Assembly (NCBI RefSeq): GCF_024223415.1
Contig: NZ_CP100500.1
DNA from: Escherichia coli
Lineage (GTDB): Bacteria > Pseudomonadota > Gammaproteobacteria > Enterobacterales > Enterobacteriaceae
Strand: one strand, 5' to 3'
DNA: 64,000 nucleotides
Positions 14,231 through 60,054 of the stretch are shown piece by piece. A program made the translations under genes and the position numbers. The notes beneath the pieces are model-generated. The model searched no databases. It worked only from the letters and a program-made list of their open reading frames with translations, and was not told the origin of the DNA. Position 1 is the first letter of the stretch. Every line of letters begins with the position of its first letter.

Positions 14231-14267
14231 AAAAAAACAAACGGCACGACACAGCTGTCGTACCGTT
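14231..14267 (-). terminator. Rho-independent terminator after ecnB
   Basis: Near-perfect inverted repeat acggcacgaca-cagctg-tcgtaccgt followed (on minus strand) by U-run. Confidence 0.6.
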
Positions 14268-14278
14268 ATTGCTTATTG

Positions 14279-14425
14279 CTATTGCTGCGCTTTCGTTGCT
14301 GCGCCAGAAATCGCGTTACCGCCATCAGAAATGTCTTCACCAACGCCACGCGTAGTGTTGCAGGCAGTTAATACTGTTGAAAGCACCAGAACAGAAAAGA
14401 TCGCTGCAATTGTCTTCTTCACCAT
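14279..14425 (-). CDS. ecnB: Entericidin B lipoprotein
   Basis: 48-aa [51 protein letters not shown], lipobox LTAC; not in ORF track because short. Confidence 0.85.
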
Positions 14426-28296: not shown

Positions 28297-28372
28297 GCCC
28301 GGATAGCTCAGTCGGTAGAGCAGGGGATTGAAAATCCCCGTGTCCTTGGTTCGATTCCGAGTCCGGGCACCA
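28297..28372 (+). tRNA. pheU: tRNA-Phe (anticodon GAA), pheU-type
   Basis: 76-nt cloverleaf GCCCGGATAGCTCAGTCGGTAGAGCAGGGGATTGAAAATCCCC...GGTTCGATTCCGAGTCCGGGCACCA with encoded CCA; sits where pheU lies relative to yjdC. Confidence 0.97.
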
Positions 28373-28381
28373 AATTCATAT

Positions 28382-28409
28382 AAACGGACCTCCACGGAGG
28401 TCCGTTTTT
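28382..28409 (+). terminator. Rho-independent terminator after tRNA-Phe
   Basis: aaacggacctcc-acgg-aggtccgttttt hairpin with T-run. Confidence 0.8.
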
Positions 28410-28569
28410 CGTTTCAGGACGCCACGATTTAAGCGTCCTGCCGCCAAATCAATTCTACCGAACTCAACCAGACTCCCCCCACATCAACCCCATTGTGTGG
28501 GTATAATTGCGGGTATACCCCAGTTCGACAGAATTTGTACCCTCTTTAACGCATTCAGAAGGCTGAACT

Positions 28570-29832
28570 ATGGCACTGACTGACGCAAAAATCCGGGCTG
28601 CAAAGCACACTGACAAGGCTTATAAACTCACTGACGGGGCTGGCATGTTCCTGCTGGTACATCCTAATGGTTCCCGTTACTGGCGTCTCCGTTATCGCAT
28701 TCTGGGTAAGGAGAAAACTCTGGCACTTGGTGTATACCCGGAGGTTTCTCTCTCCGAAGCTCGTACAAAACGGGATGAGGCCCGAAAACTGATTTCGGAG
28801 GGGATTGACCCTTGCGAACAGAAAAGAGCTAAAAAAGTAGTCCCTGATTTACAACTCTCTTTTGAACATATTGCACGACGCTGGCATGCCAGTAATAAAC
28901 AATGGGCACAATCACACAGCGATAAGGTACTCAAAAGCCTCGAAACACACGTTTTCCCCTTTATCGGCAACCGGAACATCACAACACTCAATACCCCGGA
29001 CCTGCTTATCCCTGTTCGTGCTGCAGAAGCTAAACAAATTTATGAAATCGCCAGTCGTCTGCAGCAAAGAATATCTGCTGTAATGCGTTATGCCGTACAG
29101 TCTGGCATCATCAGATATAATCCTGCTCTGGATATGGCTGGCGCATTGACTACGGTAAAACGCCAGCATCGCCCCGCTCTTGATCTTTCTCGCCTGCCTG
29201 AACTTTTGTCGCGTATTGGCAGTTACAAGGGGCAACCTGTCACCCAGCTTGCCGTTATGCTGAATTTACTGGTTTTTATTCGTTCCAGTGAACTCAGATA
29301 CGCCCGCTGGTCTGAAATTGATATTGACAATGCCATGTGGACTATTCCAGCCGAACGCGAACCCCTGCCAGGCGTAAAATTCTCACACCGGGGCTCCAAG
29401 ATGCGAACACCACATCTTGTGCCACTCAGCAAACAGGCTGTAGCCATACTGACAGAACTACAGACATGGGCTGGTGAAAATGGTCTGATCTTTACGGGAG
29501 CACATGACCCGCGTAAACCAATCAGTGAAAATACTGTAAATAAAGCCCTGAGGGTGATGGGGTATGACACAACCCAGGATGTCTGTGGCCATGGATTCCG
29601 GGCGATGGCGTGCAGTGCATTGATTGAATCAGGTTTGTGGTCCCGCGATGCTGTGGAACGTCAGATGAGCCATCAGGAGCGTAATGGTGTACGTGCTGCG
29701 TATATCCATAAAGCAGAACATCTGGAAGAACGTCGACTGATGCTACAGTGGTGGGCAGATTTTCTGGATGCGAACAGAGATAAGGGTATCAGCCCGTTTG
29801 AATATGCAAAGATTAACAATCCATTAAAATAG
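28570..29832 (+). CDS. int: P4-type tyrosine integrase (island integrase)
   Basis: 420 aa; N-terminal MALTDAKIRAAK...YWRLRYR typical of P4-like integrases; C-terminal catalytic region with R...HGFR...Y; first gene 3' of tRNA-Phe. Confidence 0.9.
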   Translation: MALTDAKIRAAKHTDKAYKLTDGAGMFLLVHPNGSRYWRLRYRILGKEKTLALGVYPEVSLSEARTKRDEARKLISEGIDPCEQKRAKKVVPDLQLSFEHIARRWHASNKQWAQSHSDKVLKSLETHVFPFIGNRNITTLNTPDLLIPVRAAEAKQIYEIASRLQQRISAVMRYAVQSGIIRYNPALDMAGALTTVKRQHRPALDLSRLPELLSRIGSYKGQPVTQLAVMLNLLVFIRSSELRYARWSEIDIDNAMWTIPAEREPLPGVKFSHRGSKMRTPHLVPLSKQAVAILTELQTWAGENGLIFTGAHDPRKPISENTVNKALRVMGYDTTQDVCGHGFRAMACSALIESGLWSRDAVERQMSHQERNGVRAAYIHKAEHLEERRLMLQWWADFLDANRDKGISPFEYAKINNPLK

Positions 29833-30097
29833 TAAGCAGTCCGGGCTGATTGCCCGGACTGCTTTAACTGATTATTTTTCTTTGTAAATGATGACGAAGA
29901 TTGATGTTCTGGCAAGTTACTCCGGCTTCCATTAAAGTCCCTTCGTCATGTTCTTCAGGCTATTTATGACTGTGATTAGCACCAGGAATATCTGGTTTCC
30001 ATGAGAGCAGGTAATAACCCCCGGTGTTTTCGGCTGTTCTGGTATCCTTGTCCAACACAGGCAGTCATTATAAACGGTAAAAAATGTGGATTTGCCC

Positions 30098-31003
30098 CTA
30101 TATTTCCAGACATCTGTTATCACTTAACCCATTACAGGCCCGCTGCCGCAGATATTCCCGTGGCGAGCGATAACCCAACGCACTATGCGGATGCCATTCG
30201 TTATAATGCTCGAACGCCTCTGCAAGGTTCTTTGCTGCCGTTAACCCGTCTGGTTTGGGCATGACACTGATGTAGTCACGCTTTATCGTTTTCACGAAGC
30301 TCTCTGCTATGCCGTTACTCTCCGGACTCCGCACCGCCGTGTTCTTCGGTTCAAGCCCCAACATCCGGGCAAACTGCCGTGTTTCATTAGCCCGGTAGCA
30401 TGAACCATTATCCGTCAGCCACTCTACTGGAGACGCCGGAAGCTCGTTGCCGAAGCGGCGTTCCACCGCTCCTGGCATGACGTCCTGTACTGTTTCACTG
30501 TTGAAGCCGCCCGTAGTGACCGCCCAGTGCAGTGCCTCACGGTCACAGCAGTCCAGCGCGAACGTGACTCGCAGTTTTTCTCCGTTATCACAGCGGAACT
30601 CGAACCCGTCAGAGCACCATCGCTGATTACTTTCTTTCACAGCCACTCTGCCGGTATGTGCCCGTTTCGATGGCGGTACAGCGGTTTTTCGCTCAAGCAA
30701 CAGCGCATTCTGGCGCATGATCCGGTAAATACGTTTGGCATTGATCGCAGGCATACCATCAAGTTCTGTTTGTCTGCGAAGCAGCGCCCATACCCGACAA
30801 TAACCATATGTGGGTAGCTCTCCGATAACATGGTGTATACGGCGAAGCACATCCGTATCATCCGTGTGACGGCTGCGGCGGCCGTCCTTCCAGTCATCGG
30901 CTCGTCTGAGAATGACGTGCAACTGCGCACGCGACACCCGGAGACAACGGCTGACGAAGCTTACTCCCCATCCCCGGGCAATAAGGGCGCGTGCGCTATC
31001 CAC
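30098..31003 (-). CDS. insD: IS2 transposase InsD (OrfB)
   Basis: 301 aa, near-identical to recalled IS2 InsD ([34 protein letters not shown]...). Confidence 0.92.
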
Positions 31004-31326
31004 TTTTTTGCTCGCCCATATTCAACGGCTTCTTTAAGGAGTTCATTTTCCATCGTTTTTTTGCCGAGCAGACGCTGGAGTTCTTTAATCTGCTTCATGG
31101 CGGCAGCAAGTTCAGAGGCAGGAACGACCTGTTCTCCGGCAGCCACAGCAGTAAGACTTCCCTCCTGGTATTGCTTACGCCAGAGAAATAGCTGGCTGGC
31201 TGCCACACCATGTTGCCGGGCAACAAGGGAGACCGTCATTCCCGGTTCAAAGCTCTGCTGAACGATAGCGATCTTTTCCTGTGTAGTACGCCGTCTGCGT
31301 TTCTCCGGCCCTAAGACATCAATCAT
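30961..31326 (-). CDS. insC: IS2 InsC (OrfA, HTH regulator)
   Basis: ORF trimmed to Met ([26 protein letters not shown]...), 121 aa; overlaps insD as expected for frameshift fusion. Confidence 0.9.
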
Positions 31327-31543
31327 CTGTTCTCCAATGACTAGTCTAAAAACTAGTATTAAGACTATCACTTATTTAAGTGATATTGGTTGTCTGGAGA
31401 TTCAGGGGGCCAGTCTAAAATGTATTCACTGTTATGAAATCAATAGTTCTGACGTACTGTTGAATGTGCTTGCGTTCTGAACCTTGTACAACCAGTACAT
31501 TTGATACCGAATTATAAACAAAACATTGCATCCAACTTTTTCA

Positions 31544-31619: not shown

Positions 31620-34600
31620 ATGGATGAAAATGCTTTAGGGTTTGCCTCATACTGGCGCAACTCGCTTGCGGATGCTGAGTCAGGAAAGGGCAGTTTTGAA
31701 CGGAAAGACGCCAAAAATTTCACTCATTGGCATGGGATAGCGGCGGGACGTCTTGACGAAGCGATTGTCAGTAAATTTTTTAAGGGAGAAAAAGACGATG
31801 TCGAAACGGTCGATGTCATCTTGCGCCCAAAAGTTTATTTCCGGTTACTGCAGCATGGTAAGGACCGTTCTGCAGGTGCGCCTGATATTGTTACCCCGAT
31901 AGTGACGCCAGCCTTGCTAAGCCGTGAGGGTTTTTTATATCCGACGCCAGCGACCTCCATTCCCAGAGACCTGCTTGAACCTTTGCCAAAAGGAGCATTT
32001 TCGATTGGTGAGATTGGGCAGTATGACAAATACAAGACGACCCATACCACGTTCTCTATCAACTTTGATGACAGCGTTGATAAGACTGCCGAAACGCATG
32101 AAGAACGGGAAGCACGATATGCCGCCTTGCAGCAGGAGTGGCGTCAATATCTGTATGACTCAGAGAGGCTACTGAAGAGCGTTGCCAGCGACTGGATTGA
32201 AAAACCTGAGCAATATGAACTCGCTGAGCACGGTTATATTGTTAAAACGGCGCAATCTGGCGGTGCCAGTTTCCATATCCTTTCTCTTTATGATCACCTG
32301 CTTGTTTGCAATAAGGATGTGCCGCTCTTCAATCGATTCGCCTCGCGAGAGGTTCATGCTGCAGAGTCTTTGCTGGCCCCTGGAGCAAAATTCAGCGACA
32401 GGCTTGGACACTCCGGAGATAAGTTTCCGCTGGCAAAGGCTCAGCGCGATGCCTTAAGCCATTTTCTGGATGCTAAACATGGCGATATCCTTGCTGTTAA
32501 TGGCCCTCCTGGAACCGGAAAAACCACGCTGGTGCTTTCTATCATCGCCACGCAGTGGGCCAGAGCGGCTCTCGAAAAATCTGAGCCTCCGGTTATTATC
32601 GCGACTTCAACGAATAACCAGGCTGTAACGAACATTATTGAGGCATTCGGGAAAGACTTTTCGCAAGGTTCAGGTGCGATGGCCGGGCGATGGTTGCCAG
32701 AGCTGAAAAGCTTCGGCGCTTATTTTCCCTCAAGCAGCCGTAAAGCTGAAGCAGCCAAAAAATATCAAACTGAAGATTTCTTCAACCAGGTTGAGTCAAA
32801 AGAGTATGTAGAAGATGCACTGCTGTTTTATCTGGAAAAGGCTAAGGCAGCCTTTCCTGAAAAAGAGTGTTCATCCCCTGAAAAGGTCATTGAACTCCTG
32901 CATGGTCAGTTGGCAGCAAAATCCGAGCAACTGATAAGACTGAACGCAACATGGCAAACGTTAAGCCAGATTCGGGCTGCGCGTGAGCTTATTGCTAATG
33001 ATATTGAGCAATATCTCAATAATTTAAATAAATTACTTTCCGGACAAGAACAAAAAATCACTCTACTGAAGAGTGCTAAAACGGAATGGAAAAAATATCG
33101 CGCCGGTGAATCACTGATCTATTCATTATTTTCCTGGCTTCCGGCGGTTCGCAGTAAGCGACAGTACCAAATACAGCTGTTTCTCGAAGATAAATTAGGT
33201 GCGCTGATTGCAGGAAATCAATGGTCTGATCCTGAAACTATCGAAAGTAATATTGATGGGCTGCTCAATTCCGCTGAGCGCGAGCAAACAACATACCGGC
33301 AGCAGATTGACTCCGCCCATGAAATCATTCTTAAAGAACAGCAGGCGGTTCAGGAGTGGCAGAGACTGGCTCTTGATTTAGGGTATGAGGGCGACGAGGA
33401 ACTGAGCTTCTCACAGGCCGATGAACTGGCTGATACGCAGATTCGCTTCCCTGCATTTTTACTGACGACTCACTACTGGGAAGGTCGTTGGCTGATGGAT
33501 ATGGCCAGCATTGATGATCTGCAGGAAGAGAAGAAGAAAAAAGGCGCTAAAGGGGTAACCGCCCGTTGGCAACGTCGAATGAAACTCACTCCATGTGTGG
33601 TGATGACATGCTATATGCTGCCCGGCAATATGCAGATAAGTGAGCACAAAGGACAGCGTAAATTCGAGAAAAGTTATTTGTATGATTTTGCCGATTTACT
33701 CATTGTCGATGAAGCCGGGCAGGTGCTTCCTGAAGTGGCTGCTGCCTCGTTTGCATTAGCTAAGAAGGCATTAGTGATTGGCGATACGGAGCAGATCCCG
33801 CCAATATGGAGTATTGCTCCTGCGATTGATATCGGTAACATGCTGGCGGAAAAAATTCTGTCTGGCAGTACGCAAGAAGAGATTACCGAGAAATATACGG
33901 CAATCGCAGACCTTGGTAAAAGTGCCGCATCTGGCAGCGTTATGAAAATAGCGCAGTTTGCTTCGCGCTATCAATATGATCCCGAACTGGCTCGTGGTAT
34001 GTACCTATATGAACACCGCCGGTGCTACGACAATATTATTGGATACTGTAATACGCTCTGCTATCACGGTAAGTTGTTGCCTAAAAGAGGGCGTGAAGAG
34101 AGCAATTTAATGCCCGCAATGGGGTATCTCCATATTGATGGTAAAGGAGAGCTGGCAAGTAGTGGAAGTCGATATAATTTGCTTGAGGCTGAAACGATAG
34201 CGGTCTGGTTGGCAGAGAACCAGCAAAATATTGAAGCGCATTACGGTAAATCGCTTCATGAAGTTGTCGGTATTGTGACGCCTTTTAGCGCTCAGGTATC
34301 CACTATCAAACAGGTGCTGGGCAAACAAGGTATCAGTACAGGCACGAATGAAAAGTCGCTCACAGTGGGCACCGTGCACTCTCTTCAGGGAGCGGAAAGA
34401 GCGATTGTGATATTCTCGCCAGTCTATTCAAAACATGAAGACGGCGGGTTTATTGATAGCGATAACAGCATGCTGAATGTTGCAGTCTCCCGTGCGAAGG
34501 ACAGTTTTCTGGTCTTCGGCGATATGGACCTGTTTGAGGTCCAGCCAGCCTCATCGCCACGGGGATTACTGGCAAAATACCTCTTTGAGTCAGAGAAGAA

Positions 34601-35135
34601 TGCGCTCTCTTTTGATTATAAAGAGCGTAAGGATTTAAAAACCGCCGGGACCAAAATCTACACACTTCATGGTGTGGAGCAACATGATAATTTCCTGAAT
34701 CAGACATTTGAAAATACCAGTAAACACATCACGATAGTTTCTCCATGGCTGACCTGGCAAAGGCTGGAGCAAACCGGTTTTCTTGATTCCATGATTGCGG
34801 CGTGTTCACGTGGAATTAACGTCACGATAGTCACTGACAGAAGCTACAACACTGAACATAATGATTTTGAGAAGCGAAAAGAGAAGCAGCAGAACTTTAA
34901 AGCGGCGCTGGAGAAACTGAATGCGCTGGGTATTGCTACAAAGCTGGTAAACCGTGTTCATAGCAAAATTGTTATTGGTGATGATGGTTTGCTGTGCGTG
35001 GGATCGTTCAACTGGTTTAGTGCGACACGGGAAGCGCGATATGAACGATACGATACATCAATGGTTTATTGCGGTGATAACCTGAAGGGTGAGATTGAGG
35101 CTATTTATAATAGTCTTGAGAGGCGGCAGGTTTAG
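31620..35135 (+). CDS. Superfamily-1 (Upf1/DNA2-like) helicase fused to C-terminal PLD-family (HKD) nuclease domain; candidate single-gene defence protein
   Basis: 1171 aa. Walker [10 protein letters not shown] (nt 32502-32528, aa 295-303); Walker B/motif II DEAGQ (nt 33708-33722, aa 697-701); SF1 motifs [18 protein letters not shown] and [16 protein letters not shown]; C-terminal HSKIVIGDD...GSFNWF = HxK(x4)D(x6)GSxN PLD signature (nt 34959-35030). About 290-aa N-terminal region and about 390-aa insert between Walker A and B have no motif I recognise. Confidence 0.75.
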
Positions 35136-38991: not shown

Positions 38992-40971
38992 TCAGGTGCC
39001 GATTATGCCGCCGTCGGCTTTTACGATAACGACAGTTGAGGAGCGCGGACGACCAGCCTTATCGCCGTCAGGCCAGCTTGATACTGCCGTCGGATGCTGC
39101 GGATCGCTAAGCCCTTCGCTTGGCTCGCCAGGGTGCTGGATGTTAATAAACAGCGTCCGGTTATCCGGAGTGAACGCGATGCCGGTGATTTCGCAGCCGC
39201 GCGGGCCGGTCAGGAAGCGGCGGAACTCATTGGTACCGGGGATCGTCGCCACCATCTGGTTGTTGCCCATGCCTTTGTAATCTTTAATATTTATGGTTGA
39301 TGACGACACGTCGGTCTGGATCCATAGCACGCCGCGGTGATCGAAGCTCAGGCCATCGGCGCTGCCGAATTCCGCACCCTTCATGCTGCCTTTGGTTTCC
39401 GGTTTGTCTGTATCGGTGCGACCGCCCATCACAAGAATATCCCAGGCAAACTGCAGCGCGGTCGGGTCACCGTTATGCTCCAACCAGTGAATGATGTGGC
39501 CGTAAACGTTTTTGGCGCGCGGGTTGGCCGCATCCACTGGCGCTTTTCCTTCCGTACCGCGATCGCTGTTGTTGGTGAGCGTGCAGTAAACGCTGCCGGC
39601 GTGATATGGATCGACCGCAATCCACTCCGGGCGGTCCATTTTAGTGGCCCCCACGGCGTCTGCCGCCAGACGGGTTTTAATCAACAGGTCGCCCTGGTTT
39701 TCAAACCCTTTACTGGCGTCGAGCCCATTTTGTCCGAACACCAGCGGTAGCCACTCGCCTTTGCCGTCGTCGTTAAATTTCGCCACGTACAGAGTGCCTT
39801 TTTCCAGCAGGTGCATGTTGGCTTTGCGATCCTGCGGGTTGAATTTTCCTTCCGAGACAAATTTATATATGTATTCGAATTTCTGGTCATCGCCCATATA
39901 GACCACAACGCGGTTATCCGGGGCAATTGTCACCGCTGCGCCTTCGTGTTTGATGCGACCAAGCGCGGTGTGCTTGCGCGGCACTGAATGCGGATCGTAT
40001 GGATCGATTTCCACCACCCAGCCGAAGCGGTTCGGCTCGTTCGGCGTGGCGTCGACGCTGAACCTTTTATCCACTTCGTTCCAGCGGTAAGAGTCGTCGC
40101 TCCCGCTGATACCGTAACGTTTTTCCAGCGGGTTCATCTCTGCTTTTTTTACGAAAATATCGGACCAGTTCTCTTCACACGTCAGATAGGTGCCCCACGG
40201 CGTAAATCCGTTGGCACAGTTCTGCATGGTGCCGAGAATGATTTCGCCTTTCGGATCGTCAACTGTTTGCATCAGTGGGTTATGCAGCGCCGGACCGGTG
40301 ATTTTCATCGGCGTGTTAACGGTGATGCGGCGTGCGAACGATGACGGGCGCACCACTTCCCAGCCCAGGGGCACTTTTTTTACTTCAATGACCGACACGC
40401 CCATCGCGTTCTGGCCTTTAAGAGCTTTATCGGCGCTCCAGTTGGCATCGCCATCTTTAAACAGTAGACCGTTATCGATGTATTCATGGTTTATGGCAAG
40501 CAGGCCGTGATCGGAGCTGTTCCCGCCCTGCGGCAGGCTAAACCACGCCATGCCGTCGTGGTGCATCCCGGCCTGCGCCGCCTGTTCTTCCGTGGTGTTG
40601 CTACCGTCGGTTTTAAAAACCGGCAGATTTCCGGCAATCCCGGTGGCGTCGCCCCATTTGTAGAAGGGCTTCGCGATGTATCCTTCCGGCACGATAACGG
40701 TATCTTCCGTGGAAACCGGCAGGCTGGTGAAACCGAGCGTCGTCGCTTTGCCGAGGTTACCGCTTGCTTTGGAGACCACTTTCGCCAGCGCGTTTTCCTG
40801 TTTCAGCAGAAATGGGAACGCTGCCGCGGCACCGGCGACCGTGCCTGCCTGTAACAGACGGCGGCGTGACAAATAGACTTCCGCCACCTGCGAAAACGCG
40901 CGGTTATCGCTCGGGTTACTGATTTCTTCACTATGCTCACGTTTGAATAAAGTTTTTAACGGTCTGCCCAT
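38992..40971 (-). CDS. Tat-exported PhoX-family alkaline phosphatase (DUF839-like)
   Basis: 659 aa; twin-arginine signal SRRRLLQAGTVAGAAAAFPFL; length and composition as recalled for PhoX family; not part of K-12 core. Confidence 0.6.
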   Translation of the reverse strand: MGRPLKTLFKREHSEEISNPSDNRAFSQVAEVYLSRRRLLQAGTVAGAAAAFPFLLKQENALAKVVSKASGNLGKATTLGFTSLPVSTEDTVIVPEGYIAKPFYKWGDATGIAGNLPVFKTDGSNTTEEQAAQAGMHHDGMAWFSLPQGGNSSDHGLLAINHEYIDNGLLFKDGDANWSADKALKGQNAMGVSVIEVKKVPLGWEVVRPSSFARRITVNTPMKITGPALHNPLMQTVDDPKGEIILGTMQNCANGFTPWGTYLTCEENWSDIFVKKAEMNPLEKRYGISGSDDSYRWNEVDKRFSVDATPNEPNRFGWVVEIDPYDPHSVPRKHTALGRIKHEGAAVTIAPDNRVVVYMGDDQKFEYIYKFVSEGKFNPQDRKANMHLLEKGTLYVAKFNDDGKGEWLPLVFGQNGLDASKGFENQGDLLIKTRLAADAVGATKMDRPEWIAVDPYHAGSVYCTLTNNSDRGTEGKAPVDAANPRAKNVYGHIIHWLEHNGDPTALQFAWDILVMGGRTDTDKPETKGSMKGAEFGSADGLSFDHRGVLWIQTDVSSSTINIKDYKGMGNNQMVATIPGTNEFRRFLTGPRGCEITGIAFTPDNRTLFINIQHPGEPSEGLSDPQHPTAVSSWPDGDKAGRPRSSTVVIVKADGGIIGT

Positions 40972-41393
40972 TGCGGTTTCCTTTCAAAAAATCGATTTCA
41001 AGGGGAATCATTTTTATGCACGTGAGTCTACGGAAAGATTGTTACGGAAATATAACAATTGTCATAAAAAACCGGCGATAAAATCATCTATGGTCGGGAC
41101 GCGGTTTCAGGTATGATGTGAGGCTAGAATTCTGAACGCTCTCTTTTGTTGAGCATATATGGACGTCCCGGGTGAGGCAAGTACTGGTTCGATGCGGTTT
41201 GCGACCATATATCCGGCGTCGTTAGTAGGTTCAATGACCTGCGCCATGATGTTATCCGGGCCCTATTTCCTAATCACTACACCGGTATTTGATTACCCAG
41301 GTCAACTTCAGACTGTTACAGGGGCGGTAGCCGTTATCTCATCAGTGAATGTAAACTCAGTTAAAAATATTTTCTATAACTTACTGTTTTTAT

Positions 41394-41603
41394 TTAATTC
41401 ATCACAACGGCCTTCTGCATATTAAAATCAATACTATCGCTCAAAACACGCCAGATGATTCTTGTCAGCTTGTTCGCCAGCGCACCAGTGGTTTTCAGGA
41501 ACCCTCGACGGGCTTCCATCCTTTGCAGACAAATACTCAGACTGTCAGTGAGCTTTTTCACACAGCGCATTACAGACTGAAATGGCACACTGAATTTGGT
41601 CAC
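41394..41603 (-). pseudogene. Transposase C-terminal fragment (IS110-family-like)
   Basis: 69-aa ORF ending ...ALANKLTRIIWRVLSD..., resembling IS110-family transposase C-termini. Confidence 0.3.
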
Positions 41604-41649
41604 CTGAACAGAGGTGATATGCTCACCTCAGAACAAGACTGGTGCCCTA

Positions 41650-42350
<701 letters not shown>

Positions 42351-42356
42351 CTAGCT

Positions 42357-42393
<37 letters not shown>

Positions 42394-42732
42394 TAATTAC
42401 ACTGTGGGTTGACGCCGGAAGAATCAGAGAACAGATACCGTTCTTACTGTAAAACGTGGCTAATATTAATTGAGCACTGCAGTGTTCAGAGCACAAAGAA
42501 GAAAAAAGATGTGTGCGAATGCCTGTAATGTGTTAAAAGAATGTTCCGCGTTTCCGGTACGCTTTTCGTAACTAACAATGCAGGGTGACGTAACGCTGGT
42601 TGTGCCGGAAACGCGTCCCTCCCCCTATCTTTCCTGTTTGGATTTGCCCCTATATTTCTGGATTATCCGACAAAACCGGCGTGAAGTATTACTCTCGTCG
42701 CCCAGCACCATAAGGATAACGCCCATAAAATC

Positions 42733-43098
42733 ATGAAACTTTTCTTCCAGATTGGATACAATCAGGCCGTATCCCGTATTACAGGCTTATCACGTGTGAC
42801 AGTCAGTCTCTGGGTGTGTTCAGGAACATTCCCTGAAATGTCAACCCGGCCTCCAGAGCGAGGACTTCTGGACCCATGGAGGGAGTGGTTAAAAGAGCAA
42901 CGAGAAAGTGGTAACTTCGGCGCGTGGCTGCAAGGATGGCAGCTGATGCTGCGGCTATATGTGAGGCAATCAGCAGTCGCTGGAATAATGGGGGTTGTCG
43001 AAAGTCATGTAAATCGACTAAAAATGCTGAAAGGCCAGATGTATGGTCGAGCCGGATTTGAACTACTCAGGCAGAGGGTCATGAGTCCACTGGCATGA
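42733..43098 (+). CDS. Hypothetical protein with AlpA-like HTH N-terminus
   Basis: 121-aa ORF; N-terminal ...AVSRITGLSRVTVSLWVCSGTFPE resembles AlpA-family phage/ICE regulators; weak. Confidence 0.3.
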   Translation: MKLFFQIGYNQAVSRITGLSRVTVSLWVCSGTFPEMSTRPPERGLLDPWREWLKEQRESGNFGAWLQGWQLMLRLYVRQSAVAGIMGVVESHVNRLKMLKGQMYGRAGFELLRQRVMSPLA

Positions 43099-43306
43099 AA
43101 ATCTCCATCCAGGTTGCGTAAGAGCCACTTTTCATCCGTCGTCGATATCTGGGATAGCCATAGTGAAATAAAAAGCTGTCTGAATTAAATTATTTTGCAC
43201 ATATATTTTAATCCTGCACTGAATTAAGAATGGGTAATCAGTGACCGCTTGGACGGTCACTTTTAAGAGAAGGCATTAACAGAGAATGGTAAACAGGCTC
43301 AATATA

Positions 43307-43757
43307 TTATGTTGTTGGCACTACAGATGAATGATGGGATGATATTTTCCAATCCTTTCCATCCCACTCATAAGCGAAACTATAGCGTGCTGAAACTTGT
43401 TTTTTATCTTCAAAAGTAAACGTGTAATTCCCTGTATCAAGAGCCATATTGCATCCAATGCGAATAGTTCTGAAGTTTATTTCTCCAACAGTTTTTTTTT
43501 CAAAAAATGCTCAAAATAGTCAACTCTTTCTGCATCTGTAATCCTAATTTTTTTTGATACTGTGGGCAGTAAGATCGCATCACTTAAATAGTTATCAGCA
43601 ACCTTCTTGGCATCACCTGTTTTTAATGATTCATTCCAGCGATCGAATAACCTTTCAATGTCTTTACTATCTACCCGAATACACTTAACATTATCTACGT
43701 CACTTGCCCACGACGCTCCAGAAAACAGACACAGAATTAAAATATTTATTTTTTCAT
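43307..43757 (-). pseudogene. Small secreted NTF2-like (SnoaL/DUF4440-like) protein gene interrupted at two homopolymer tracts
   Basis: AGGAGG then ATG at 43755-43757 followed by A6 and immediate stop; +1 frame encodes signal peptide KINILILCLFSGASWASD...; second shift at A9 tract (plus-strand T9, 43492-43500); restoring A7 and A10 gives about 150-aa ORF ending ...WDGKDWKISSHHSSVVPTT. Confidence 0.5.
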
Positions 43758-43991
43758 AACTCCTCCTGATCAGCCTGAAACTTTTTTAAAGTTTAATCAT
43801 ATTAATACAGTGCAACTATTTGATAGTAAAAACGATGTTCTCTATTTTGTTAATAGATACTTCCTATTGTGTATATATTATGAGATTATTAAGAATAATA
43901 CTCTCTGGGTCGTAGAGACAGGGTATAAGTCACAGGCTGGTGTGGTTCGGATGTTCTTGCCCCCTCAATATCAGACTGCTATTGTATCTTA

Positions 43992-44370
43992 AGTTAACGT
44001 TATCCGCTGACGTCGATATTCCCGTGGTGAGAGATAACCTAACGCACTATGCGGATGGTTTTCATTGTAATGCTCGAACGCCTCTGCAAGGTTATGCAAT
44101 GCCGTTATTACATTCAGTTTCGGCATGAACGCGATGTAGTCTTCATTCACGTTTTCACGAACCTTTCTGCCATTCTATTGCTCTGAGGGCTACTGACTGC
44201 CGTCGTGCAGGGCTCCAGATTCAACTCTCTGGCGAATTGCCGTGTTTCATGAGCCGTATAAGCCGAACCGTTATCCGTCCGCCACTGGATTGCTCGTTCC
44301 GGTCCTTTATCGCCAAAGCGTTTTTCTATCGCTCCTAACATCACATCCTGCACTGTCGGCTTTATCGTAA
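43992..44370 (-). pseudogene. Diverged IS2-group 3' fragment (partial InsD-like orfB plus terminal repeat)
   Basis: About 80% nucleotide similarity to the IS2 3' region at 30120-30520; encodes ...[45 protein letters not shown] similar to InsD. Confidence 0.7.
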
Positions 44371-44655
44371 CCTCCCGTACTGGTCACGGGCAGACTGTTC
44401 ATCATGTTAAACCCAGCCGCTGTCAGATCATGCACCGGCCGGATGGCGGGCTGACCTGCCCCGCCGCGCTGCTGCCCGCCAATCCATTTCTTACCTTCCT
44501 TCCCGGTGGCCTGACGTCCGGCCTCGTCCCCTTTCACCGCATCACCGTCACCGCTGTTCACCACCTTCTTGTACTCTTCCAGCATCGCTGGCCTGCGTCC
44601 ATTTGCTGCGATCAGAAAAGTCCATCATCCGTTTTGCCATGTTCTGGCAGTTCAG

Positions 44656-45117
44656 TTACGCCTTGTCGAAAGCCACATTCGCCTGCAGCACACCGTTGGT
44701 GATCATGTCGTACAGGCCGGGGTTGGCACGCTGTATCACCATCGCCGGCAGACTGGCAGCGGCGCCGGTCGCCCCCTGAATCACATCCCCCATCAGATTT
44801 TTAAAGCCGTCGGTCAATCCGTTAAGATGATTACCCACCGTGGTCTTCAGGTCAAAGTTGCCGCACATCAGATCGCTGCTCCAGCCCAGGTCCATACCCA
44901 GCTTCTGCATGTTGCTGCGCGTGGCCAACTGTGAGATCACCGAGCCGCCACCCAGCGTATAGAACAGTTTGTCGGATACGGCGCCATCCACGGATTTCCC
45001 GTAACCGAACGTGCTGTCATTCAGTTTCGGCAGGGAAAGAAGATCAGCCATCGCCGGAATACTGCAGTACAGCATCACACTCAGTGCCACCATACCTGTT
45101 TTCATCTTCATCATCAT
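44656..45117 (-). pseudogene. Conjugative-element transfer protein fragment (TraH-like?), 3'-truncated
   Basis: 153-aa ORF with signal peptide MMMKMKTGMVALSVMLYCSIPAMA; reading frame breaks downstream and abuts the IS2-like fragment; family assignment tentative. Confidence 0.3.
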
Positions 45118-45123
45118 GGTTCC

Positions 45124-46098
45124 TTAAAAATTCGTACTGCCAAGGAATCGCTGCCCGCGCTTTTCGAAGCAGCTGTAAGGCTGCCACAGTGCAAAGGCTG
45201 CATTACCGTTCTCCGCTGCCTGGTGTTCACCATCCGGGAAAACGGCACAGGAACGCGACACTGACGGCGTCAGTCGCTGCCATTTGTGATTGCGGGTGCC
45301 GGTGTTTTCCTCCACCGCCTCCGGGGGCCACTAGCCGTCACGTTTCACGCCCTTAACCTCCCTGTAGACATGCGACTCCCCCATCCGCGTGATAATGTCG
45401 GCCACCCGCTGAGCCCCCACCGCCGCGGCCCGGTCATCATCGGTCTGCATCACAAAACCACTCCGGTGATAAACGCTCCCCCACATGTTTTTATCGGCCT
45501 AGCTGCCAATCTCGCGTTTGCCGGGAACCTGTGCCTCTGGATACAGGGATTCAGGTAATCCCGTTCGCTAGACGATGCTGTCCAGGGTACTGAGGAAATA
45601 GGCCATGGCCGGTGTCACCGGTGAATCACAGCTGAATCCGGGTACCATCCCGCCGATAAGCTGTGTGGCCGGATGACCCAGCGCATCTGCGTATTTGAAA
45701 CGAATGGCTGAACGGCGCTTCCCCTGTATTTTCATATCCGCCGGATTTCCCCCGCCGGCACTCAGCCCGGACAGGCCGTCAGTGATGGCATTCTCCGGGC
45801 CACCTGCGGTCCGGCTGACCAGCGACATCTCTTTCCAGGGATTACCACCCGGTGCCGTATAGGTGGAAATAACCACTTCCGGGATGAAATGTGTCACCTT
45901 CACGGAAATTCTGACCGTACAGCCAGACGCGCTGCAGTAAAGCCAGTAACAAATCCCGCTGACACGCCAGCTGATATAGTCCGGTGCCGCAGTACTGGCG
46001 ATAATGCTGGCGGTGTTCAGTGATACAGACGCCAGGGGCAGTGATGCCACACTCAGTAACAGCACGCCGGTACGCAGACGACATTTCAGGGACATCAT
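45124..46098 (-). pseudogene. Conjugative-element transfer protein (TraU-like?) split by frameshifts/stops
   Basis: 176-aa N-terminal ORF with signal peptide and Cys-rich segment (ICYWLYCSASGC), continued in other frames to about 45124; total about TraU size. Confidence 0.3.
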
Positions 46099-46211
46099 GG
46101 CTGCACTCCTCCCTCAGCACGGATTTTCCCGGCCATCACCACATCCATGGTGCCGTAAACCACCTCACTGTCATCAAACACCACGGCAGGGTATTTCTTC
46201 ACGCCCAGCGA

Positions 46212-46490
46212 CTAGGCATGTGCCACATCGCGGTAATGACCGGCCAGTTCCGCCTGCATCGTCTGCCATTCGGGAGACTTCATACGTACCCTGACCACCG
46301 ATTCAGCCTCACCCGCATCAGCAGGCAACAGGCCCCAAAAGCGGCTCTGAAGCTGCTCAGGCGCATCCAGCAGAACCACCCTGACACCATCAGGAGGATT
46401 AACGGGAAGATGCTGAGAATCGGTATAAATTGTTGTGCCGGCAGACGCTGCCAGCGGCAGGAAAAACAGGGAACAGAAAATCCGGTACAT
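46212..46490 (-). CDS. Small secreted protein of conjugative-element remnant
   Basis: 92-aa ORF with signal peptide MYRIFCSLFFLPLAASA; upstream of the TraU-like fragment on same strand. Confidence 0.3.
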   Translation of the reverse strand: MYRIFCSLFFLPLAASAGTTIYTDSQHLPVNPPDGVRVVLLDAPEQLQSRFWGLLPADAGEAESVVRVRMKSPEWQTMQAELAGHYRDVAHA

Positions 46491-46686
46491 CGCACGCTGT
46501 CAGTCAGATATTATCTGACTGACAGCGTGCGAAGAAAGCGCTCATTTATCAGCAATAAATTAAAAACGGGATTAAAAAATTACGGTGGGATCCGGGGAAG
46601 TGTATCTGCCAAGCATAACAGACAGTCTGTGATTATACCCGGCCTTTCACAAAGCCGGGGAACTGATTCATACCAAGTGGTGATTT

Positions 46687-46938
46687 TCAACAATAAGTAT
46701 AATGAGGTTGTCCCGGCACCGGTGGCAGTGGTTCGAGATAGACGTCATCAACAAAAACACAGGGGAATTTTTCAACTGCACATCCAGCACGCTCAGACAT
46801 TACCTTCAGACTGATACCATGTTTCTCAGCATCAATAAAGAGGACATCTGCCCCTGTTTCATCCCGGAGATTTGTCGCATGATGCATGATCCGGTGTACT
46901 GAAGGACATGTTTTGTAACCAAAAACACATATACGCAT
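46687..46938 (-). CDS. Small thioredoxin-fold/glutaredoxin-like protein (monothiol CPS motif)
   Basis: ORF trimmed to Met (MRICVFGYKTCPSVHRIMHH...), 83 aa; beta-alpha-beta start with CP motif; weak. Confidence 0.3.
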   Translation of the reverse strand: MRICVFGYKTCPSVHRIMHHATNLRDETGADVLFIDAEKHGISLKVMSERAGCAVEKFPCVFVDDVYLEPLPPVPGQPHYTYC

Positions 46939-47424
46939 GTTGCACCTCCTGATCACTGGTTGACGCCGATAATAAAACAATAATGTGAGCGTAAAAAATG
47001 CACCTCATACCACATTTCTGTAAAAGGCTCTGGCTATCACTGCAAAAAGCAAAATCTTAATTCCAGCATCACTTGTTACTCTCATTCCGTCACTTATATT
47101 TACCCACATGGCGATGTATTTAATTACTGCCCATAAGAATAAAAGCCGCTGGCGGATTATTTCTTTATTACCCGGATGCGGTCACAAGCCCACACATCGT
47201 CAACTACCTGCCGGTAATATTAACTGTCAGAAGAACGCATACATCCGGATGTTTACAGAGTCGCGCGCCTGGTCACAGGTGACAACAGAAGTATGCCATA
47301 CTAAAGGAGTAAACGGCGGGTCACTGGTGATCAAACACCTGCATCGTGTGTTGCTGCCACTGCCCTCAGGTGACAGAGGCAGCATCTTTACGTATTATAA
47401 TGCGTTATATCGGGTTTGTTGTTA

Positions 47425-49512
47425 TCAGAACTGATAGTTCAGCGACATCCAGTAATTTCTCTCAGGTATCACATAACCCGTTGTCGATGCCCCCGTCTGG
47501 AAGTAATCACCCGCATAAAGCGTACCACTGCCGGCACGATACAGACTTACGTCACTGTAATCCTTGTTAAGCACATTATTCACCGCTGCATTCAGCATCA
47601 GTGCATCCGTCACTTTCCACGACATGCCCGCATCCAGTACCGTCCAGGCTTTCAGATATTCACCTTTCTCATCATACACTTTCTTCTGTACAGCTGAGAG
47701 TGACGAATAATTCTGGGTGAAACGTGGCGTTTTCCCGCGGTAACGGGCACCCAGCCATGATGTCACCTCTTCAGTAATCTGCCAGTTCAGTTTCGCATTC
47801 ACCATATGCTCAGGGGTGTAACTCAGTGGTGCACCTTTATTATCCCCATCCCGTTGTTCACTCTGCGTCCAGGTATAATTCAGAGACAGAGTCACATCCT
47901 CTGACAACAGAGGCAGTGTGCCGGCAAATTCCACGCCCTGAGTCCTGGCCTTTCCGCTGTTTGTGTAGCTGCGGGTATTATCATCAATGGAATAAGATAC
48001 GATCTTGTTGGAGAATTCTGTCATAAAGCCCGTGATATTGGCGTTCAGACCGGCATGATTATCGTAATACACGCCCGCTTCATAACTGACACTCTCCTCC
48101 GGCTTCAGGTCCGGGTTACCGAGAAGATTCGTACGCCCCTGACCGGACACACCGCTGATCCCCTTATGTAACTGCCCCATGCTGGGCGCCTTATATCCCG
48201 TGGTCACCCCACCTTTCAGCGTCCACGCATCAGTCACATCCCAGACCATATATGCCCGGGGACTGAAGTGTCCTCCGAACACCTCATAGCGTTCATAGCG
48301 GCTACCCGCAGTCAGTGCAAATGCATCCGTGATATACCACTCATCCTCAACAAATGCCGACCAGCTTTTCTGACGGAAGGTTTCACCAGTACTGGCGAGA
48401 ACAACCCCGTCTTTCATGGAGGAGTTCTGATACTCACCACCGACGGTAACCTTGTGTGATTCCCCCAGAGGTGCAAACAGTAATGAGCTCAGGATAAGAT
48501 TCGACTCCTTAAGCTCCCTCGGCTGGCCGGCAAGCCCCCATTTATCACGCTGCAGTACGCTACGTACAAGCTGACGGCCTTTATTTTCCGTCTCATTCCA
48601 GTTCAGGGATGACTTCCAGGCTCCGAAGGTGAATGTATGATCATAGCCTGCTGAAATTTTATTACGCTCATAGCGCAGGGTGCGATCATAACCGCCCGTC
48701 AGACTGCCCAGCTGGCCATCTCGGTTATCATAACGCTGCCGGGCGATATCCATATCAATCCAGAGTACATCCTTGTCCGTCGCTTTCCAGTCAAGACGAC
48801 CACCTGCATTATAATTCTGTGATTCCGTGGGATAAGGGATACGCGTAGCTGAGGTGTCGCTCAGTGATGTGACCGATGAGCCCTGACGCTGCTGTGTGCT
48901 GCCACGTACCTGAAGGCTGAGTGAATCATCCACAAGGGGACCGCTGCTCCAGAAATTAAACTGGCTGCTGTTCCCCCATTTGTTACTTTCCTGCAGGTTC
49001 AGCCCGGCATTAACCGAAGAGCGCCATTTGTCTGCATTCTTTTTGGTGATGATATTCACCACGCCCCCCATGGCATCAGAGCCGTACAGAGTGGACATGG
49101 GGCCCCTGATAATCTCAATACGTTCGATGGCGGCCAGAGGTGGCATAAAACCCGTATTCATGGCAGCATAACCGTTTGGGGTTACGTCACTGCTCCCGCC
49201 CTGACGGACACCATCGATCAGTATCAGCGTATAACTGGCAGGCATTCCGCGGATGCTGATTTCCAGCCCACCTGTTTTACCCGTACCGCTTTCAACATCC
49301 ACCCCCTCTACGGATCTCAGTGCCTCCCCCAGATCATGATACTGGCTGGATCGCAAATCCTCCTGGCTGATCACTGAAACACTCGCAGCTGCACTGGTTA
49401 ATTTTTTTTCATAGCCAGACGCCGTGACTACCATCACATCTTCCGCAGCCATACTGCTGACTGAAAACCCGAGACAAGGGATGGCTACTGAAGCCAGAGT
49501 GGTTACTCGCAT
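47425..49512 (-). CDS. iha: TonB-dependent outer-membrane siderophore receptor/adhesin, IrgA homologue (Iha-like)
   Basis: 695 aa; signal peptide, TonB box region (DVMVVTAS), plug motif IERIEIIRGPMSTLYGSDAMGGVVNIITKK, C-terminal ...WMSLNYQF; closely resembles recalled IrgA/Iha. Confidence 0.7.
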   Translation of the reverse strand: MRVTTLASVAIPCLGFSVSSMAAEDVMVVTASGYEKKLTSAAASVSVISQEDLRSSQYHDLGEALRSVEGVDVESGTGKTGGLEISIRGMPASYTLILIDGVRQGGSSDVTPNGYAAMNTGFMPPLAAIERIEIIRGPMSTLYGSDAMGGVVNIITKKNADKWRSSVNAGLNLQESNKWGNSSQFNFWSSGPLVDDSLSLQVRGSTQQRQGSSVTSLSDTSATRIPYPTESQNYNAGGRLDWKATDKDVLWIDMDIARQRYDNRDGQLGSLTGGYDRTLRYERNKISAGYDHTFTFGAWKSSLNWNETENKGRQLVRSVLQRDKWGLAGQPRELKESNLILSSLLFAPLGESHKVTVGGEYQNSSMKDGVVLASTGETFRQKSWSAFVEDEWYITDAFALTAGSRYERYEVFGGHFSPRAYMVWDVTDAWTLKGGVTTGYKAPSMGQLHKGISGVSGQGRTNLLGNPDLKPEESVSYEAGVYYDNHAGLNANITGFMTEFSNKIVSYSIDDNTRSYTNSGKARTQGVEFAGTLPLLSEDVTLSLNYTWTQSEQRDGDNKGAPLSYTPEHMVNAKLNWQITEEVTSWLGARYRGKTPRFTQNYSSLSAVQKKVYDEKGEYLKAWTVLDAGMSWKVTDALMLNAAVNNVLNKDYSDVSLYRAGSGTLYAGDYFQTGASTTGYVIPERNYWMSLNYQF

Positions 49513-55780: not shown

Positions 55781-56689
55781 GTGGGGGTGACCATCTCATT
55801 AGACCCGGGCATCAGTATCAGTCACCTAAACAACAGAGAAAAAACAAATATCGCTGATGCCCTGAGACAAACATATCCCCTGACAGAATTACTGCATGTT
55901 CTGGGCCTTGCCCGTAGCAGTTATTTTTATCACCGGGCTGCACTGAAAGCCGGTGATAAATACGCCACGATACGTACGATGCTGACAGATATAGTTAACA
56001 GTAATTACCAGTGTTATGGCTATCGTCGCCTGCATGCGATGCTCAGGCATGAGGGGGTCAGCTATCAGAAAAGGTTGTAAGCAGACTTATGGTGAAGGAA
56101 CAGCTTGTCGTCAGCCGTAACCGTCGTCGCCGCTACAGCTCATATTGCGGAGAAATCGGACCGGATCCGGATAACCTTATCGCCAGAGATTTTAAGGAGG
56201 ACCAACCTAATCAGAAATGGCTGACAGATATAACGGAGTTCCAGCTTCCTGCAGGAAAAGTCTGGCTGTCACAGGTGGTGGACTGCTTCGATGGAAAAGT
56301 TGTGAGCTGGTCTCTCAGTACACGCCCCGACGCAGAACTGGTTAACGCTATGCTGGATAACGCTGTCAAAACGTTAAATGCTGGCGAACGACCGATGATA
56401 CACAGTGGCAGAGGTGGGCATTATCGCTGGCCAGGCTGGCTGGCTGGAAAGAGTTAATGCCGCAGGTCTTATTCACTCAATGTCCCGTAAGGATGATGCC
56501 GCATGCGAAGGCTTTTTCGGCAGACTGAAAACGGAAATGTATTATGGGCGTAAATGGTCGGGCATCATGCCGGAAAAGTTCATGCAGCATGTGGATGCTT
56601 ACATCAGAGGGTATAACGAGCGGCGTATAAAATTATCGCTGGGTGAAGACAGCCCTGAAATGTACCGCCAACAATGTAGGCTGGCATAA
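55781..56689 (+). pseudogene. IS3-family orfB split into three frames
   Basis: ORFs 55781-56080, 56089-56457, 56405-56689 together give a DDE transposase (...WLTDITEF..., ...SMSRKDDAACEGFFGRLKTEMYYGRKW..., ...YIRGYNERRIKLSLGEDSPEMYRQQ). Confidence 0.65.
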
Positions 56690-59400: not shown

Positions 59401-60054
59401 ACCTTACCTAAGCAATACAATGTTCAATAATATAACTATGCTCTAATAAATTTTTACAGGTGTTTAAAGAAATAATCACACGTATTCTTATCTTTGCAAT
59501 CTAATCTAATTTTAAATAAAGGTCAATATCTTATTTTTTTGATATAAGTTTTCTTAAATACCACGATATAAAAACATTTTATTTAAGTGATTTCTTTTAG
59601 TTTGCTTTTCAAATAAAAGGGATGTACTCATGACATTTTAAATATGTACATCATGCACAGCAATATTATAGTTTTTTATCTGATTACTGAGAAGTATCTA
59701 TCAATAGAACAATGTTTTTTAGTTTGTATAGGGAAGAGTTGGGTTGAATTGAGAATAAAAACTAGAGATTACTGGGGAAGGAACTTTTCAAATCCGAAAT
59801 CATGGTCTACAATGAAAAAATGATGTTCTAAGTATTCCTATCATGAATAAGAATGCACCATATTTTGAATAGTATAATTTTATATTTATATATCCTTTAC
59901 TGTACGATGATGATATTTTATACCTGAATGACAAGGGTGTTATTTTATACCACATATAAATTTGCAGAAAATATAAAATGAGAAGCACTGAATAATCGCG
60001 GCTTCTGGCTATGATTTAAATGCTTTTACATTTTTTCAAAGTAAATTCAGTTCA

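Follow-up and report, generated by a model that had tools for sequence, protein, structure and literature searches.

Two single-nucleotide frameshifts at poly-A runs of an SgcJ/EcaC-family gene in an Escherichia coli island

The locus, its island and the encoded protein family

The window analysed here is a stretch of 64,000 nucleotides of Escherichia coli DNA (contig NZ_CP100500.1, assembly GCF_024223415.1), in which the core genes groSL, aspA, dcuA and dsbD extend to a tRNA-Phe gene at 28297-28372, followed by a P4-type integrase and then by an island that continues up to the end of the window. The island boundary lies at 28297-29832, where the tRNA-Phe, which follows dsbD and dicD and occupies the pheU position, precedes the integrase of 420 aa. 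The gene under study is located between IS fragments, downstream of iha and of decayed ICE genes and upstream of PhoX, and its setting (iha, ICE remnants, IS debris, the gene, IS debris, PhoX) is the same in RefSeq E. coli genomes. The locus is carried by 51 of the 5,426 complete E. coli genomes, always on the chromosome, and a 100% match to the locus of the window is found in none (0/5,426) of the complete RefSeq E. coli genomes. A plasmid origin was rejected, as the PLSDB plasmids gave no match to the locus. The gene is a rare, horizontally acquired accessory gene of E. coli, for a putatively periplasmic or secreted protein, in a decayed island at tRNA-Phe (pheU). The core of the window is 99.94-99.97% identical to the relatives L034 and L029, and in exact-protein look-ups the Iha, DsbD and 1171-aa MkoC-like proteins of the window are common E. 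coli alleles.

Beside the integrase, the plus strand of the island encodes at 31620-35135 this 1171-aa helicase and PLD-nuclease protein, with a full-length match to MkoC in PADLOC (E=0, 1693 bits); MkoC is part of the Mokosh type II anti-phage defence, and the 1171-aa gene is intact here as well as in many E. coli pheU islands. A 1.33-kb IS insertion at 30087-31417, containing a 301-aa rve ORF (30098-31003), is present in L048, L051, L054 and L055 and missing in L26. The decayed ICE genes at 44656-46814, TraU/TIGR03756 and DUF1525/TIGR03757, have internal stops, and since their defects are annotated alike in RefSeq E. coli genomes they are inherited pseudogenes. At 46493-46499, a cluster of substitutions with a 1-nt indel distinguishes two island haplotypes.

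An initial annotation of the window had described, between the IS fragments, an AGGAGG Shine-Dalgarno sequence and an ATG followed by A6 and an immediate stop; all these elements are present on the minus strand, and their coordinates were correct (Table 1). Apart from two 1-nt deletions, the DNA of this locus is that of the annotated E. coli gene for WP_029400372.1, a match far above chance. The start frame reads Met-Lys-Lys-stop (ATG, A6, TAA). The next frame, for which a signal peptide had been claimed and which does have this layout (INILILCLFSGASWA|SDVDNVKC..., with a hydrophobic core and an A-x-A-like motif), is open for 90 codons and ends at a TAA shortly after the A9 run, where the second frame change had been placed. 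The third frame continues as ...VGEINFRTIRIGC...HHSSVVPTT up to a stop codon at 43309-43307. With Met-Lys-Lys-stop at its beginning and a second frameshift at codon 90, the copy in the window has no intact, translatable ORF of the family, and its middle segment lacks an ATG or GTG start, so that nothing substantial would be translatable from this allele. Adding one A to each tract restores a 150-aa ORF, as had been stated, and the product is exactly the P0022 (P90T) protein of public E. coli assemblies.

Table 1. Features of the interrupted gene, in coordinates of the window
Feature	Position	Strand	Remarks
Whole pseudogene	43307..43757	minus	451 nt vs 453 nt in the intact allele (150 aa, SgcJ/EcaC-family NTF2-like, putatively secreted)
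Shine-Dalgarno sequence AGGAGG	43762..43767	minus	4 nt upstream of the ATG; direct sequence reading
ATG start codon	43755..43757	minus	start shared with the RefSeq CDS of WP_029400372.1
Tract 1, A6 (A7 in the intact allele)	43749..43754	minus	lesion 1: -1 frameshift after codon 3
Premature TAA resulting from lesion 1	43746..43748	minus	product would be M-K-K
Remainder of the putative signal peptide, I4-A18, INILILCLFSGASWA	43705..43749	minus	out of frame with the ATG
Tract 2, A8 (codons S-K-K-I)	43548..43555	minus	unaltered in the window; +1 and -1 alleles elsewhere
Tract 3, A9 (43500-43492) and a single C (43491)	43491..43500	minus	lesion 2: -1 frameshift, codon 90
Second premature TAA (...FLKKKLLEK-stop), from lesion 2	43477..43479	minus	sequence reading
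C-terminal 60 codons (VGEINF...VVPTT-stop), third frame	43307..43490	minus	contains the 46-aa ORF predicted by gene callers in broken alleles

In a scan of 43100-44100, no convincing minus-strand promoter was detected upstream of the gene and no terminator was found, the counts being at shuffle level, and an Rfam search of both strands of 40000-47000 gave no match. On the plus strand, at 43240-43264, a perfect 8-bp hairpin (AGTGACCG-N6-CGGTCACT) followed by TTT lies 45 nt past the stop codon of the gene; it was not called by the consensus scan, and since its T-tail is on the plus strand it would terminate transcription of that strand and not of the gene strand.

The repaired protein matches TIGR02246 over residues 30-148 with 42.8 bits, above the curated NCBIfam cutoff of 33.95, and in Pfam it matches CaMKII_AD (6.2e-13), SnoaL_3 (2e-7) and DUF4440. 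By sequence it also matches the PDB entry 3H51 (E=1.1e-30). An AF2 model built with 18 homologues as input (pLDDT 82.1) has an NTF2-like alpha+beta cone, whose top match in Foldseek is again 3H51 (TM 0.77/0.81, rmsd 1.9), followed by ketosteroid isomerases, SgcJ (4OVM) and the hub domains of CaMKII. Profile and fold agree, and the gene is a pseudogene of the SgcJ/EcaC (TIGR02246) NTF2-like family; "oxidoreductase" is an inherited family label, for what would be a putative activity of this clade. The N-terminus (MKK, then INILILCLF, then SWA|S) has the layout of a putative Sec signal peptide, that is a hydrophobic core and then an A-x-A-like cleavage motif, with a hydropathy (mean/peak) of 2.2-3.0 at residues 3-7, as judged by motif reading. 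The profile score, the structural match and the modelled cone fold are all consistent with the initial designation as an NTF2-like gene, and the N-terminal layout agrees with a putatively secreted product. Homologues, ~150 aa long, are frequently found in Enterobacterales, several of them with the annotation "signal peptide protein". Cys26 and Cys103 are invariant among them, the HHSS motif is also common to them, and Pro90 is invariant in the 18 homologues and in 3H51.

Allele states and variation in run length

The common intact allele has the configuration A7...A8...A9-CC, vs A6...A8...A9-C in the window. Lesion 1 is a true shortening of the poly-A run, from A7 to A6, and the initial claim of two missing As is correct in this half. 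For lesion 2, the claim depends on the ancestor: since the common intact allele is A9-CC and Pro90 is invariant, lesion 2 corresponds, relative to the canonical gene, to the loss of a C beside the run, and it would be a missing A only if the ancestor had been A10-C. The A10-C (P90T) allele is natural and in frame (L036-L042), and it is carried by the nearest relatives of the window by flanking SNPs, namely L042, with 0 differences in 1.2 kb, and L039, with 2 in 10.6 kb. With these haplotypes, an A10 to A9 slip from an A10-C ancestor would be a plausible alternative route to lesion 2; a missing A in the A9 run, at first rejected on the A9-CC alignment, was partly reinstated by the presence of A10-C on the window's own haplotype. 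More in general, a repair made by adding one base to a run can rebuild an allele that is real but non-ancestral, here with P90T at an invariant proline. The A10-C allele (P90T, at the equivalent of position 43491 of the window) is present on both island haplotypes, which would imply a recurrent C to A change beside the run (possibly by misalignment mutagenesis), a compensatory +1 slippage after the deletion of the C, or recombination.

Each lesion is found separately elsewhere. A6 occurs in the complete genome of GF60 and in the metagenome contig L009, and A9-C, together with A7, in GCA_002080505.1 and GCA_002080535.1, with contigs that recur in 2 and 4 samples. No other assembly surveyed combines A6 with A9-C as the window does. 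Over the 453-nt coding sequence, all the surveyed loci together show 0 substitutions and 1-nt deletions at four sites, and five allele states coexist within a clade whose divergence from the window does not exceed 0.06%. A comparison of tract lengths across isolates, as had been suggested with the initial annotation, gave A6, A8+1, A8-1, A9-2, A9-1, A9+1, A9-C and A10-C. In the exact-product look-up, the intact protein is found in 3159 index blocks, and the variants are A9-1 (A8CC; 90 contigs), A8+1 (71-aa product; 14 contigs), A8-1 (85-aa product; 9 contigs), A10-C (7-10 contigs), A9-2 (A7CC; 4 contigs), A9+1 (A10CC; 3 contigs) and A9-C (2 contigs). The A8 and A9 runs thus vary in both directions, and at the A7 run only A6 was found, an A8 at this place giving a 19-aa product that is outside the look-up. 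Overall, a single intact allele dominates, accompanied by several independent broken alleles of low frequency.

The gene has a GC content of 35%, vs 50% for the window, and it holds the only run of 9 or more in the window and two of the four runs of 8 or more; with 75% AAA usage, its runs are about as composition predicts. Similar runs of the neighbouring genes were used as controls, with percentages that are approximate and, for iha and for the gene itself, relate contigs to index blocks: the A8 run of iha, an adhesin/siderophore-receptor gene, varies in about 12 contigs vs 4263 blocks (~0.3%), the A7 runs of PhoX vary in 6 and 4 contigs vs 314 (1-2%), and for the gene the figures are 23 vs 3159 blocks at A8 (~0.7%) and 97 vs 3159 at A9 (~3%). 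Within the limits of these mixed units, no variation above that of comparable runs in iha and PhoX was seen, and an exceptional hypervariability of the gene was rejected after this control. The A8 run of iha (49402-49409, minus strand, codons 35-37) is near the 5' end of its gene and is intact here, and products of its -1 and +1 frameshifts (37 aa and 59 aa) are found in public assemblies, including that of E. coli TA008. Among the homologues of the gene, those of Providencia and Enterobacter that have KKKP encode it as AAA-AAG-AAA or AAG-AAA-AAA, which interrupts the run, and other genera have SNK or SNQ at the position of the A8, and no A8 run; the tracts are therefore not maintained features. 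It is also established that the rate of indels rises exponentially with the length of a run (PMC8510543), and the frequencies at A8 and A9 fit this rule, so that no special mechanism is needed.

Phase variation was among the initial proposals. In this case, the poly-A runs would be a contingency switch for frequent ON/OFF changes of a secreted protein, of which the window would have captured the OFF phase. Several observations are in line with such a switch, namely homopolymers both at the 5' end (A7/A6, codons 2-4) and inside the coding sequence (A8, A9), whose length sets the frame; variants of both signs at A8 and A9, with A6 vs A7 at the first run; the occurrence at least twice of A9-C (OFF) and A10-C (ON) on near-identical haplotypes; and the five states within the clade divergent by 0.06% or less. 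However, two simultaneous +1 events would be required to turn the window copy ON, the intact allele prevails by 3159 blocks vs tens of contigs per variant, the runs of iha and PhoX of similar length vary about equally, and the tracts, which are about as expected from composition, are not conserved, with AAG in the KKKP homologues and no A8 run. Classical contingency tracts are much more mutable than A runs of 7-10 nt in mismatch-repair-proficient E. coli. Strict phase variation is hence improbable, with two lesions to be reverted, unconserved tracts and a polymorphism no greater than that of the iha and PhoX runs. Even more improbable, by a little, is a genuine contingency-type locus formed by the A7, A8 and A9/A10 runs, in which slippage would toggle A9-C/A10-C and A6/A7 on very short evolutionary time scales and RNA-polymerase slippage would allow leaky expression of the OFF alleles; if true, this would be an uncommon case, in an enterobacterium proficient in mismatch repair, of a secreted protein that is phase-variable through poly-A runs.

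Comparison with related assemblies

A homopolymer under-call in the assembly, which would cast doubt on other pseudogenes too, had also been proposed, and the alignments with close relatives bear directly on it. In the comparison with L052 (16.8 kb, 99.935% identity, 8 SNPs), which has an intact allele, the two lesions are the only internal indels, in addition to one gap at the edge of the alignment, and the same two are the only indels over the 23.5 kb compared with L051. There are 0 indels over 20.4 kb with L054 and over 12.5 kb with the core of L034 and L029. Over 35 kb, two indels separate the window from L26 and neither frameshifts a core gene; one of them affects one base of the sugE-ecnB spacer, and the other, bordering ecnB at ~14274, a 6-bp repeat unit. 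Over 25.4 kb, SCU-115 differs by 6 indels, and the window has the extra bases in 3 of them, including an A-run longer by one base. As to the sequences concerned, 14231-14237 in the sugE-ecnB spacer reads GCA-A7 and not GCAG-A6 as in L26, and ~14262-14290, at the ecnB edge, has one extra TATTGC unit (6 bp, ~14274). With respect to SCU-115 as the one comparator, an extra CAGC repeat unit is found at 56437 and T7 instead of T6 at 59534-59540, both in IS or non-coding debris.

The window contains 82 runs of 6 or more and 17 of 7 or more. Alignment of ~58 kb to close relatives revealed no further homopolymer deletion private to the window; the only runs that are shortened with respect to the relatives, in the stretches compared, are those of the gene itself, and in the sole private run-length difference, at 59534, the window is one base longer than its single comparator, SCU-115. 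At the other runs of 8 (20355, 43548 and 49402), all relatives with coverage have the same length as the window. A systematic under-call of homopolymers throughout the assembly is refuted by the lack of any excess of 1-nt homopolymer deletions and by the separate occurrence of each lesion elsewhere.

An error limited to the two runs has to be considered apart. The true allele of the strain would then be in frame, most probably the A7 and A10-C combination of L042 and L039, and one or both runs would have been under-called by one base. Both deficits are at or next to homopolymers, and one of these would be an A10, the longest run of the window; one A per run recreates an allele that exists in nature, with a 1.2-kb flank that does not differ from that of the window; and some public assemblies plainly contain homopolymer artefacts. 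The two lesions are located at the most error-prone sites of the window, which counts against their being genuine mutations, and the nearest relatives, L042 and L039, are what an under-call at the two sites would be expected to resemble. On the other hand, a general under-call is absent from the ~58 kb, including the 59534 run, the remaining runs of 8 match all the relatives, and each lesion recurs in independent assemblies, so that a local error requires a coincidence of two errors in one 453-nt gene and nowhere else. Taken together, these data make a local error unlikely.

Some of the tract variants in public assemblies are probably artefacts. In L017, L023 and L050, all three of which resemble error-prone long-read assemblies, homopolymer gaps are numerous and scattered, and the private variants of L017 (A8 to A7) and L023 (deletion of a G in the SD) were discounted on this ground; in TA008, homopolymer-type truncations affect both iha and the SgcJ/EcaC gene. 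The nearby pseudogenes of the window (ICE remnants and IS debris), which the initial annotation had called into question, can be taken at face value because they are common to RefSeq E. coli genomes. The main value of these comparisons is one of quality control, since the two frameshifts are not a sign of a poor assembly.

Interpretation and comparison with known systems

Among the initial proposals, decay by slipped-strand mutation is the one that fits best. With a probability of about 0.65, the two lesions would be genuine slipped-strand mutations that have turned a dispensable, AT-rich island gene into a double-hit pseudogene. With 35% GC and Lys-Lys(-Lys) spelled as AAA repeats, the gene has runs of A7, A8 and A9, and they are mutational hot spots, because the rate of indels increases exponentially with run length. 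We infer that slipped-strand mispairing shortened A7 to A6, which would stop translation after Met-Lys-Lys, and that a change from A9-CC, or from A10-C, to A9-C, at or beside the run, would shift the frame again at codon 90. Whichever the order of the two events, one frameshift would abolish the function, and the second would have no cost and would accumulate neutrally, if the gene is indeed dispensable; reversion would be possible in principle, only by two independent +1 events. A decay of this kind fits the surroundings, an island full of IS debris and of shared pseudogenes. As an AT-rich, horizontally acquired gene with Lys-Lys-Lys spelled by AAA, it is a tidy example of a frameshift hot spot, and new biology would be implied only if switching or rescue were shown experimentally.

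As for rescue, it is known that transcriptional slippage can restore disrupted ORFs of E. coli (PMC1088944), and a useful expression of the window copy by recoding can be envisaged. RNA-polymerase slippage would make an A10 mRNA from A9, which corresponds to the P90T allele, and a -1 slip of the P-site tRNA-Lys on AAA-AAA, before the TAA, would lead to the authentic N-terminus, M-K-K-I-N-I-L. In many bacteria, transcriptional slippage becomes significant once a run reaches A9 (PMC1088944), and the ATG-AAA-AAA-TAA geometry would allow a perfect re-pairing after the -1 slip. Nevertheless, two independent events of low probability would have to coincide on one message and ribosome, RNA polymerase would not slip efficiently on a run as short as A6, and the rescued product would have Thr at the invariant Pro90. 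In addition, the broken arrangement is not conserved, the intact allele being dominant (3159 blocks) and the broken forms heterogeneous. A recoding rescue appears extremely improbable, and the double-hit pseudogene is the reading retained for the comparisons below.

In contingency loci that vary by slipped-strand mispairing, poly-G/C or poly-A tracts are found, for example, in surface genes of Neisseria, Haemophilus, Campylobacter and Helicobacter. The gene is similar to them in having a homopolymer in the 5' coding region of what would be an exported protein, with a tract length that differs between isolates, but its tracts are short, unconserved in the homologues and no more variable than the runs of its neighbours, the intact allele is dominant, and the copy in the window has two lesions. 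Poly-A frameshift pseudogenes of E. coli that are partly rescued by slippage have been described by Baranov et al. 2005 (PMC1088944), as have the A9 of Thermus dnaX and, as cited there, Shigella mxiE. The gene shares with the slippage-rescued pseudogenes an A9 run exactly at the frame break, where a +1 slippage would restore the frame, whereas in the window an upstream break at the short A6 would block translation first, and the broken form is not conserved.

The nearest solved structure is 3H51, from Xanthomonas campestris, a structural genomics entry with no assigned function, which has the NTF2-like cone fold in common with the model of the repaired protein. The closest gene is that of WP_029400372.1, with the same island setting and, except for the two 1-nt deletions, the same DNA; this gene is intact, whereas in the window copy a stop follows the first 3 codons and the frame changes a second time at codon 90. 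Features of this kind are already known, as PGAP annotates frameshifted copies in other E. coli genomes: in the flagged SgcJ/EcaC pseudogenes of E. coli PK8276 and 23CRST013 (A9 to A8), as in the A6 allele of GF60, this gene is likewise disrupted by a -1 change within these poly-A runs. Each of these three alleles has one lesion, whereas the allele of the window joins A6 with A9-C.
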